Below, piece after piece: positions 53,501 through 56,500 of a DNA stretch of 64,000 nt. The DNA is from an uncultured Methanosarcinales archaeon (GTDB lineage Archaea; Halobacteriota; Methanosarcinia; Methanotrichales; Methanotrichaceae): positions 39,631 to 103,630 of the forward strand of contig CAWJKV010000011.1 of the NCBI GenBank assembly GCA_963843555.1. Direction: 5' to 3'. How positions within the stretch are numbered: the first letter of the stretch is position 1; every line of letters begins with the position of its first letter. The position numbers were made by a program.

Positions 53501-56500
53501 CAAAACCCAAAAAGCCCAGGAAAACAGGTATCAGAAGATAGCCAACAAAAATCGGCTCGCAGAGAATGCGAAGAAAAAGGCAGCACTGGCAAGGGAAAGG
53601 GCGAGATAGAAATTGCCTCAGGCCCAAACGAAACAATTTATATTTTGAGCTTCCTGTGTATCTGCAAATGATGCGATTTACCGCCTACGTCTCAGGTAGA
53701 ATCCAACGGGTAGGCTATCGGGCTAGGATCGTTGATCTGGCCAGGGAGATGGGTCTGTCAGGCCTGGTACAGAATCGTCCAGACGGACGGGTTCTTGTTA
53801 TTGCCGAGGGAGAGAAGCAAACCCTGGAGAAGTTTGCGGCTGCCCTTCAGATAAAAAATACCTTTATCGAAGTGAAGGGTATCAGCTTGGAGTATTCTCC
53901 AGGATCAGGAGGATTTTCAGACTTTCGCAAAATCACTGGTCCTGACGAGGTTGGAGAGCGTCTTGACGACGGCATTGAGATCCTAAAAGAGATGGTCACG
54001 AGCCTGAATAGCCTGAACGGCAAAATGGATCAATCGCTCAACAAGCAGGACCAAATGCTGGGCAAACAGGATCAGATGCTCGACAAACAGGATCAGATGC
54101 TCGACAAACAGGATCAGATGCTCGACAAACAGGATCAGATGCTCGACAAACAGGATCAGATGCTCGACAAACAGGACCAGATGCTCGACAAACAGGATCA
54201 GATGCTCGACAAACAGGATGATACCATAACGGAGATTCGAGGACTCAGAGGCGATTTGAAGACCCATATGGACATGAGGTTTGAGCGCATTGAAGCAGAC
54301 CTCGCGGAGCTGAAAGAGATGAAGACAGCGCTCAAAGAGAAAGGCATCATCTAGTCCCTAATGTCCGGAATTGTTGACGGATATCTTTACTTACAATAAT
54401 CGCACCTAGGGTTTCAGGTGATTGATATGTTTCCCGGATTAGGAGGTTTAGGCGGCAGGGGTGGCATGAGCCCCAAGAAGATGAAAGGCATGCTGAAGAA
54501 CATGGGTATAGATATCGAGGAGCTCGAGAATGTTCTAGAGGTCGTCATTCGCATGCCGGACAGGGAGATTGTCATAGAAAACGCTTCCGTCGCGATCATG
54601 GATGCCCATGGTACGCGCAGCTTCCAGATCTCAGGCGATGCCAGAGAACGTTCCATATCCGAAAATGCTCCCGGACCTGCTCTCGAAACCGCTCAAGAAG
54701 AGCCCGAATTAGAGATCTTGGACTCCGACGTTGATCTGGTTGTCGCTCAGACAGGTGCAAAGATGGAAGATGCGAAGGCGGCCCTGATAGAGGCCAAAGG
54801 AGACCTGGCAGCAGCGATAATGTCGCTAGCTCCAAAGTAAATCTTTGCCAGGTAATCTTGTGAATAACGAGATTAGAACTCTTCGCGACCCCGTCCATGG
54901 GGCCATCCAAATAGATGAGCTGGAGTGGCTTCTCATCCGCTCCAGACCTATGCAGCGACTGAAGGGCATAAAGCAACTGGGCCTGGTGGAGACTGTCTAT
55001 CCCGGGGCCAATCATACCAGGTTCGAGCATTCCCTGGGAACCATGTTCGTGGCCGGTCTAATGGCTGAGCACCTGGGTCTTTGTGCCGAGGAAGTGAGGA
55101 CAGTTCGGCTGGCGGGGCTCCTGCACGACCTGGGACATTCGGCCCTCTCTCACGCCGTGGAAGGGGTTCTCAGCCGCAACCCCGACATTCAGCCCCTCCT
55201 GGGAGGCAAGCGCGCTTCAAGGCATGAGGAGTTCACTCGCGAGACAATAACCACTCATCCCTTCGGAGAGGATGTCGTCCGTACAGTGGAAAGAGATTTC
55301 GGCAATGCTGATACTCTCTTCCAGGAGGTAGCAGATATAGCTTCGGGGGCCAGGCCTCCCCTGGGCCAGATCATCGTCGGAGACCTTGATGCAGACAGAA
55401 TAGACTTTCTGCTGAGAGACTCGCATCACTCCGGCGTCTCCCTGGGATTGGTGGACACAGATCAGATTCTTCAGGCCCTCACCATAAGCAAAGGACGAAT
55501 CACACTTGCGGGCGTTGGCGACTACAGGGCGGAGATGTCCCAGACTGCCGCAGAATCGATGCTCATTGCTCGATCGCATCACTACAATGCTCTCATCTAT
55601 CATCCAACAGTCCAATCTATCAGGGCCATGCTGCTGACGGCTTTGGAAAATGCGCTGGCAAAGATGGAAGCAGATGAAGCCCAAAGCAGGATTGTTCTCT
55701 TCTTCCGGGAATATACGGACCCGGATCTTCTCAGGTTCATCTGGGAGAAGGGAGACGATGTCTCGCATGAACTCCTGCAACGCATAAAATATGGCCGGGA
55801 GCTTCCTCTGGCAGCCAGGTTCGACCATAGATCTCTGGCGCCGGATATCAGAATGGCACTTTCCACCATCTCTCGCCACGGACGCATGAGAAAGCTTTTC
55901 GAGGACTCTCTGGGTAAGAAATATGGGGCTCTTGTAAATATCACTGTGGGCAGCGGCGTGCCGCGATCCATGAGAACAGAGGCCAATGGTTTTCTCTATG
56001 ACGAGTCTGCTCTGGCGGCGGGCCTTGTCAAGTCTTTGACCCGCCAGATCGCCGTATCCTTCTTTTCGGATGGAACTGCCGAGATCTCGCTGCATGAGGT
56101 GAGGGAGCAGGCGGCAAAACTCTTGAGCTTTATTCGTTCCGAGAGCTATCTTCCCATCGATGGCCTCTTGCTGCTTTTCTACACATTGCACAATATGCTT
56201 TCCGAGACATATGGTCAGAAGATCCTCGTTCCCAGGATCAGAAACATAACCTGGCTCTACAGGACGGTGGCCAGGCTAAAGGATCTGGGTCCCGCCAGTC
56301 TTTCCGGCCTCTTTGATTACTCCTTCCACTCCGATTACGGCTTTCCCTACAGCGAGCGGCTCTTTGAAGACATCCAGATCCTTGTGGCCATGGGCATGAT
56401 CTATCAGGATCAAAGGCATTATGAGCTGAATGGTCAGTGGCTGCAGAGGTATGAATACATGCTTACGGCAGAAGGAATAAAGTATGCCTATGAGATAGAC

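Follow-up and report, generated by a model that had tools for sequence, protein, structure and literature searches.

Stalked acylphosphatase-fold proteins of Methanothrix and other archaea: a multi-copy family partly resident in toxin-antitoxin islands

Stand-alone acylphosphatases (PF00708, EC 3.6.1.7) are single-domain housekeeping enzymes of about 90 amino acids, present in one copy, and their fold is represented by the structures compared here from B. subtilis (3br8), T. thermophilus (1ulr) and P. horikoshii (1w2i). The accessible part of PMC8147672 identifies Arg23 and Asn41 of the bovine enzyme as essential for activity and the stretch from Gln to Arg as the phosphate cradle, which contacts the phosphate through main-chain nitrogens. 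The same fold is found as a module of a larger protein in the N-terminal acylphosphatase-like domain of HypF, together with zinc-finger, YrdC and Kae1 domains. An enzyme head on a repetitive parallel coiled coil is described in archaea for the DUF3782 / PD-(D/E)XK endonucleases (PMC4786415, in the portion available), and trimeric coiled coils with a polar core, of which the NxxQD repeat of P22 Gp26 is an example, are treated in the excerpt available of PMC13580157. Small self-promoted units in arrays rich in toxin-antitoxin (TA) genes are known from type II TA systems and integron cassettes; the available text of the archaeal integron cassette paper (PMC9668308) makes no mention of Methanothrix or of acylphosphatase.

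The window analysed here, a stretch of 64,000 nucleotides from an uncultured Methanosarcinales archaeon of the Methanotrichaceae, contains a gene for a protein in which an acylphosphatase-fold head is followed by a single long helix. The gene and its features are as follows.

53668..54354, + strand: gene for a 228-aa acylphosphatase-head / coiled-coil-stalk protein of subfamily A (ORF, Pfam, AlphaFold2)
53637..53643, + strand: TATA-like box, 31 nt ahead of the ATG
53668..53934, + strand: acylphosphatase-fold head, residues 1-89 (PF00708, Foldseek)
53704..53721, + strand: phosphate cradle Q13-R-V-G-Y-R18, with the catalytic Arg present and the Gly after Gln changed to Arg
53773..53775, + strand: Asn36, the putative water-orienting catalytic residue (alignment, and PMC8147672 in its accessible part)
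53947..54339, + strand: single stalk helix, residues 94-224 (AlphaFold2; parallel coiled-coil self-association modelled)
54027..54219, + strand: 21-nt tandem array encoding KQDQMLD heptads, 9.2 copies, 92% matches
54277..54294, + strand: R204-F-E-R-I-E209, an R-h-x-x-h-E-like motif in the C-terminal module (pattern; Phe at the first h)
54418..54840, + strand: neighbouring archaeal NAC gene (PF01849), with its own conserved upstream box

An earlier note on this DNA had proposed an acylphosphatase-like head joined to one helix, and this architecture was borne out: PF00708 matches residues 6-87 (E 6.8e-19, 68.4 bits against a cut-off of 22.5), and an AlphaFold2 model from a 70-row alignment (pLDDT 93) has a head at residues 2-89 and one helix at residues 94-224. 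The presence of the TATA-like box, with no Shine-Dalgarno motif found before the gene, suggests that it is probably transcribed from a promoter of its own, with a leader that is short or lacking. The gene is also seen beyond this assembly, since contigs of close relatives span it in four runs; contigs of two runs join its 3' end to the NAC gene, and contigs from three runs end at 54075, within the repeat array.

The head folds as an alpha/beta sandwich, and its top Foldseek matches are acylphosphatases, led by 3br8 (TM 0.94 by target, rmsd 1.4 A), with the stand-alone enzymes together at TM 0.91-0.94 by target. The Arg and the Asn, and the cradle in outline, are common to these enzymes and the family head, and Asn36 is invariant across the 70-row alignment; however, where the solved enzymes have a cradle of Q-G-V-x-F/Y-R, which binds by main-chain nitrogens, the target has Arg for Gly. 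The family further differs from stand-alone acylphosphatases in its coiled-coil stalk of 50-170 residues and in being multi-copy and resident in TA islands, and from HypF in having none of the additional domains. To survey the head more widely, 322 homologues were aligned, of which 292 had the whole head and a tail of at least 40 residues, and 221 remained at less than 90% head identity. Both catalytic residues are retained in 212 of these 221 non-redundant long homologues, whereas the Gly after the cradle Gln is retained in 31 (26 of 171 in group A, 5 of 50 in group B) and substituted in 190, mostly by Arg or Lys in A and by Asp or Asn in B; a basic residue occupies the position in 100/171 group A heads. 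Group B heads have longer loops and compare with the stand-alone enzymes at TM 0.77, and a type B protein was modelled with the same fold (AlphaFold2 and Foldseek). Head dN/dS was 0.07-0.18 in 12/18 pairs with estimable dS, several of them near saturation, and 0.11 for the target head against its nearest available relative, at a near-saturated dS of 1.9; the family heads are under purifying selection. The net charge of the head is neutral to acidic. Judged from these sequences, the family consists of working proteins with a maintained phosphate site and probable activity. The cut-offs of NCBIfam were uninformative, because the 89-aa enzyme of this genome misses them just as the long forms do.

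The stalk is distinguished by its repeats. The target array encodes seven exact KQDQMLD units, one KQDQMLG and a final KQDD, and among close homologues at 81-97% identity the number of units varies from 3 to 8, against the target's 9. Taken modulo 7, the neck-to-tail lengths of 84 out of 89 close homologues sort into two classes, so that the steps preserve the heptad phase; in the group B model the stalk helix is broken near residue 148. Other gene-specific tandem repeats named in the earlier note were located in paralogues at C7:85129, C4:54670 and C17:32902. When the target heptad is placed in one register, with Q at d and D at e, it has the Q-D pair per heptad in common with the P22 Gp26 type, but Leu stands at a in place of Asn, and Met is at the centre of the four-copy model, in contrast to the polar core (PMC13580157, available excerpt). 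The DUF3782 proteins differ in that the family head is N-terminal and of another fold (PMC4786415, in part), and no sequence link between the family stalk and DUF3782 stalks was found. No stalk with another kind of head was found in this genome, and an Atlas search with the stalk alone gave no usable match.

Self-association of the stalk is supported by modelling, which predicts a bundle of three or four chains in parallel with the heads clustered at one end. The number of chains may be three, as taken in the earlier note, or four: a four-copy model scored 0.84 in each of three runs (highest of three controls, 0.00; partner pLDDT 86; at least 88% of contacts in agreement between runs), against 0.72 for the earlier three copies, with scores that are uncalibrated between copy numbers. 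Of 30 solved pairs 20 attain the score mark applied, as does 1 of 23 single chains; for four copies these counts are only roughly valid. In the four-copy model the scored chain contacts two neighbours lengthwise, and its contacts with the fourth are limited to residues 158, 165 and 186, a pattern that, as modelled, is that of a parallel four-helix bundle with Met at its centre. Peptides with a Gln/Asp core and confident trimer models were unfolded in solution, according to the available excerpt of PMC13580157, which calls for caution with three-copy and four-copy models alike. A trimer-favouring motif, R(g)-h(a)-x-x-h(d)-E(e) with h(a) being I, L, V or M, is also found in dimers (PMC3653964, available part); the target's R-F-E-R-I-E has Phe at a and so falls outside that published definition. 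With Phe allowed, an R-h-x-x-h-E-like motif occurs in the last 55 residues of 105/221 tails, as compared with a mean of 8.2 and a maximum of 16 in shuffled tails. The different motif that the earlier note had taken as shared, R-x-E-x-D-x-x-x-(I/L)K, fits no more than 6 of the 18 copies here and, among the 221 non-redundant homologues, 42. No membrane segment was found in the 221 tails (top 19-residue hydropathy 1.36), and no signal peptide is evident in the target, whose strand 1 begins at residue 2 as judged from the model.

Within this genome, an iterated six-frame profile search found 20 members, of which 18 are long (146-265 aa), one is an 89-aa enzyme and one a 50-aa fragment. The family of long paralogues described earlier thus stands, with its count and sizes (17, of 150-272 aa) revised. 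Eleven long copies are type A (Q-x-V/T/A-G-Y-R) and seven are type B (H-D/N/E-V-G/D-Y-R), the latter a separate branch at 99% SH-aLRT in a quick tree built on 95 columns without a test of clades or root. The conserved C-terminal module, loosely defined, is found in 15 of the 18, frameshifted in one and absent from two. A TATA-like box lies 27-35 nt before the start in 15/18 long copies (a loose pattern, without a chance control), and a pattern scan found no Shine-Dalgarno motif in any of the 18. Copies have been gained by tandem duplication and lost by frameshift. Four copies have flanks in common with copies of other species, and some copies are therefore settled.

The family extends well beyond Methanotrichaceae, the lineage to which the earlier note took it to be specific. 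All 40 of 40 genus relatives in Methanothrix have matches, 1-21 per genome, in agreement with the expansion already noticed there; across the phylum the full architecture is present in 42/201 genomes and 11/28 families (E 1e-30 or better). A scan of named genomes found 344 relatives, of which 80 were kept, from Caldarchaeum, Nitrososphaeria, Nitrosopumilaceae (3-4 of the kept copies in each of three genomes), Methanoculleus, Methanospirillum, Methanocalculus, Methanoperedens, Archaeoglobaceae, Halobacteria and Micrarchaeota. Atlas clusters of the family are archaeal, one of them mostly from Nitrososphaerota, and conservation of the neck and the C-terminal module extends from Nitrososphaerota to methanogens, with separate expansions in different lineages. 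The family is archaea-wide and patchy, and the largest expansion seen is that of Methanothrix, where a 47-row clade of the quick tree (96% SH-aLRT) brings together sequences from the genus itself and from Methanotrichaceae, plus one row labelled bacterial. Matches at E 0.001 or better numbered 2696 among proteins of 125-399 aa. Plasmid and phage records gave short head matches only (5 and 1, respectively), none at 80% coverage, and among 7999 candidates of 502-2000 aa no head fusion was found except HypF (two proteins). An apparent 740-aa form in genome G127 was rejected, its length being due to a run of Ns.

As the earlier note had stated, there is no conserved neighbour: no recurring operon partner of the family was found, nor, at its loci, a fixed two-gene partner of the type II TA kind. 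The NAC gene was considered as a partner of the target and rejected; the NAC-HD block was matched in 18/18 genus relatives, and an acylphosphatase gene lies 0.7-1.55 kb before NAC in none of the 16 with readable upstream DNA. On contig C9 two copies lie in an array of small units with PIN, AF2212 and HicB genes and a palindromic repeat between units. Such arrays, in some of which a repeated palindromic element separates the units, resemble those of type II TA and cassette systems (PMC9668308, available text) but the family's unit in them is a single gene without partner, and no integrase was seen beside them; the three tyrosine-recombinase matches in the genome are all on contigs other than that of the C9 array. 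Direct repeats occur in both flanks of 5 of 17 testable copies in this genome, the figure for size-matched genes being 14 of 1013. Of the other genes so bracketed, many are TA-like by sequence; the target copy has no bracketing repeat. That these repeats represent one mobility system was rejected, as the palindromic element is present in only 3/5 cases, and the brackets at C3 and C2 are a duplicated promoter and a 50-bp duplication, respectively. The palindromic element was not found beside Y1 transposases, Rfam gave nothing near a gathering score at four loci, and hairpin folds of six elements had z from -5.8 to +1.2.

In other archaea, locus L169 has three copies interleaved with PIN, HicA and ParE modules and adjoining cas1/cas2/cas4, and L170 has two copies within a 20-kb TA island. 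Glycan loci are the other recurring setting. The copies of L067-L074 form arrays with TA cassettes in glycan loci and carry broken 3' ends of an epimerase gene, and L167 has five tandem copies with differing repeat numbers in a Wzz/GT4/rhamnose locus where no TA gene was seen. Among 51 named non-Methanothrix loci, the nearest genes (one to four per locus; 149 of 205 selected neighbours scanned) included a TA-type neighbour at 8, a glycan gene at 10 and a transposase at 7.

Proximity to TA genes was evaluated outside the Methanotrichaceae in 20 of 35 genomes, picked by flank room and with two loci seen earlier excluded. By the profiles made for this purpose, 14/20 loci had a TA gene within 2.5 kb, 13 of them confirmed by Pfam (confirmation covered 37 of 53 profile matches), as against 0/17 control stretches of 20 kb (340 kb in all, 15 from test genomes, at positions chosen by the author). 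Density of TA ORFs per 10 kb was 3.0, 1.5, 0.6, 0.2 and 0.8 with rising distance, or 0.2-0.8 beyond 7.5 kb. The loci include kin that are not independent, L173 and L181 being one orthologous site, and L190 and L191 are truncated copies. For comparison, four marker families have a frequency of 0.03-0.2 per 10 kb in Methanothrix genomes. In five Methanothrix genomes, leaving aside short enzymes and tail-only rows, 15/65 copies lie within 2.5 kb of PIN, HicB, UPF0175 or HepT genes as compared with 3.55 expected; with each array counted once the numbers are 10/51 and 3.48 expected (P about 0.002). The genome studied here shows only a weak link. A TA marker lies close to 3 of its 18 long copies, the background being 7.9% for all non-TA genes (240/3051) and 8.7% for genes of multi-gene families (37/423, a value that unflagged TA families push up), and none lies within 2.5 kb of the target copy. 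No curated PADLOC defence profile matched the head in six proteins, of which three had matches to the stalk (coiled coil) only, at E 1e-4 or weaker. TA islands gather mobile genes of every kind, and residence in them is thus no proof of a defence function. The TA neighbourhood hints at a role in stress or defence rather than a structural one.

Several explanations have to be weighed against this evidence. The one we prefer, and hold with about even confidence, is that the proteins are stand-alone, cytoplasmic, homo-oligomeric phosphohydrolases that are accessory cargo of archaeal TA/defence islands. A plainer account, which we consider possible and rather doubtful, is that the protein is simply an acylphosphatase of the ordinary sort carrying an oligomerisation tail: it would bring a mild metabolic benefit, would lie among TA genes only through the tendency of islands and glycan loci to gather mobile genes, and would have expanded by duplication and drift. 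This would explain the intact catalytic pair, the fold near-identical to that of stand-alone enzymes, the mostly solitary copies here, four with flanks common to other species' copies, and the weak TA link in this genome; it does not readily account for 18 long copies beside an ordinary short enzyme, for the replacement of the cradle Gly, for a neck and C-terminal module conserved over such distances, or for independent expansions. The proposal of the earlier note, trimeric spacers with a structural or filament-associated role special to Methanotrichaceae, now appears the most improbable of all. Methanothrix does have the largest copy numbers seen, a 47-row clade, and tails rich in the R-h-x-x-h-E-like motif; yet the family is present in non-filamentous lineages, copy number varies twentyfold within the genus, four copies can also be modelled, and such a role is left unsupported by the lack of any export signal or anchor, the variable copy number and broken copies, the intact catalytic pair and the residence among TA genes. 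What does survive of that proposal is that these are stalked, self-associating coiled coils of variable length and not housekeeping enzymes.

The way in which copies alternate with complete TA modules and adjoin a cas operon, together with the basic residue at the cradle position of group A heads and a birth-and-death pattern of copies, would suit a single-gene toxin or abortive-infection effector, whose stalk keeps the heads off or senses virus and whose heads destroy a high-energy phosphate or cut nucleic acid. Acylphosphatases have a nucleolytic side activity, which counts in the same direction, and the stalked PD-(D/E)XK nucleases (DUF3782; PMC4786415, as far as available) provide an architectural precedent. 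We regard this explanation as unlikely, given that no antitoxin-like partner gene recurs, that up to 21 matches per genome are tolerated, that curated defence profiles leave the head unmatched and that its net charge is neutral to acidic. Less likely again is an accessory of surface-glycan synthesis, for example one that removes a sugar- or acyl-phosphate, with duplication of its gene within glycan loci: glycan genes adjoin 10/51 named loci, in Caldarchaeum, Methanomicrobiales and others, and the five tandem copies of L167 lie in a glycan locus with no TA gene seen, but no single glycan enzyme recurs, most copies are located elsewhere, and the copies of L067-L074, travelling with broken epimerase ends and TA cassettes, look like hot-spot amplification.

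If the proteins are indeed island-borne phosphohydrolases, the neck and the conserved C-terminal module would set the assembly of the stalk, and the repeat part would be a tolerant spacer between them that slips by replication errors. The clustered heads may hold a phosphate group and split a bond of the acyl-phosphate or phospho-anhydride type by hydrolysis; their substrate is probably other than that of the housekeeping enzyme, because the cradle Gly is mostly replaced. Head activity might serve a stress or anti-virus response, like the neighbouring genes. In Methanothrix the family would have moved out of TA islands into numerous solitary positions, some of which are retained between species, and the target gene would be one such solitary copy. 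A bolder reading, which we put forward only tentatively and would not expect to hold, makes this an unrecognised archaeal family of stress or defence effectors. Each would be a single-gene unit of TA islands or islands next to CRISPR loci, whose coiled coil, of variable length and built from three or four chains, controls heads that break a phospho-anhydride or nucleic acid; the targets during infection or stress could be, for example, a protein aspartyl-phosphate or a toxin's product.

In summary, the head family is already known, while the link to TA islands and the question of three or four chains are new. No description of the architecture was found in the literature searched, in line with the earlier note; subscription journals and supplements lay mostly outside that search, and gene tables of defence islands may list the family. 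Thousands of archaeal "acylphosphatase" entries are stalked, multi-copy proteins, and the TA neighbourhood provides the first testable lead to their function. The natural heptad series (KQDQMLD and others) would also serve as clean test material for the stoichiometry of coiled coils with polar layers in the core. New systems against viruses and stress are usually discovered in defence islands, and little of archaeal defence has been mapped; should the effector reading prove true, it would be the first use of the acylphosphatase fold as a defence enzyme found in the literature searched.

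A dispersed palindromic element, counted by one pattern as 48 arms in 22 clusters in the genome of the target gene (G000), is densest at C9:77892-84795 (locus L011) and at C6:99103-101271. In this genome, toxin-antitoxin (TA) cassettes and three acylphosphatase copies are bracketed by it. In related genomes the element reaches 19 arms per locus, and among the loci L037-L166 it was observed in those of Methanotrichaceae alone. Within the window, four arms of the ACCACAGAG-type element lie inside a group of small TA-like units at 7382-12121, made up of HEPN-like, PIN with AF2212-like, MNT-HepT and RelE-like units. 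Features close to this cluster, to the target and to one bracketed copy are as follows:

Window 11504-12387, a 408-bp tandem repeat overlapping the end of the TA-like cluster (7382-12121)
Window 43877, a HicB gene, about 9 kb before the target and beyond the 2.5-kb distance used for the TA-proximity test
Window 44781, a PIN gene, likewise about 9 kb before the target and beyond 2.5 kb
G000:C7:225123-225575, a tyrosine-recombinase match that is broken; the acylphosphatase copy at C7:223271, which is bracketed by repeats, lies 1.3 kb away

Upstream of the target, two overlapping ORFs (window 52009-53609) look like one frameshifted gene for a membrane-anchored, Ser/Thr/Asn-rich protein. The joint is a net 77 bases shorter in the contig of one run, a length at which both ORFs would share one frame. 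In the second frame, a 15-nt repeat of this region translates as NSTQV, which gives N-glycosylation-type sequons.

Family members of unusual form or labelling were also found. Locus L189 carries a nearly stalkless member of 131 aa, together with a fusion:

L189:3528-4871, + strand, in which the head and neck of an acylphosphatase are joined to an unrelated stretch of 330 residues with hydrophobic helices at its end

Two short contigs with family members, L123 and L125, are labelled Bacteroidetes and Syntrophomonas; in a quick tree on 95 columns these members group among archaeal sequences, and the bacterial labels likely reflect misbinning.

Between the acylphosphatase and TA cassettes of four loci (L067, L068, L069 and L074), broken 3' ends of two genes recur, the UDP-GlcNAc 2-epimerase gene and a GT2 gene, as if each unit had been amplified or inserted carrying a piece of its target.
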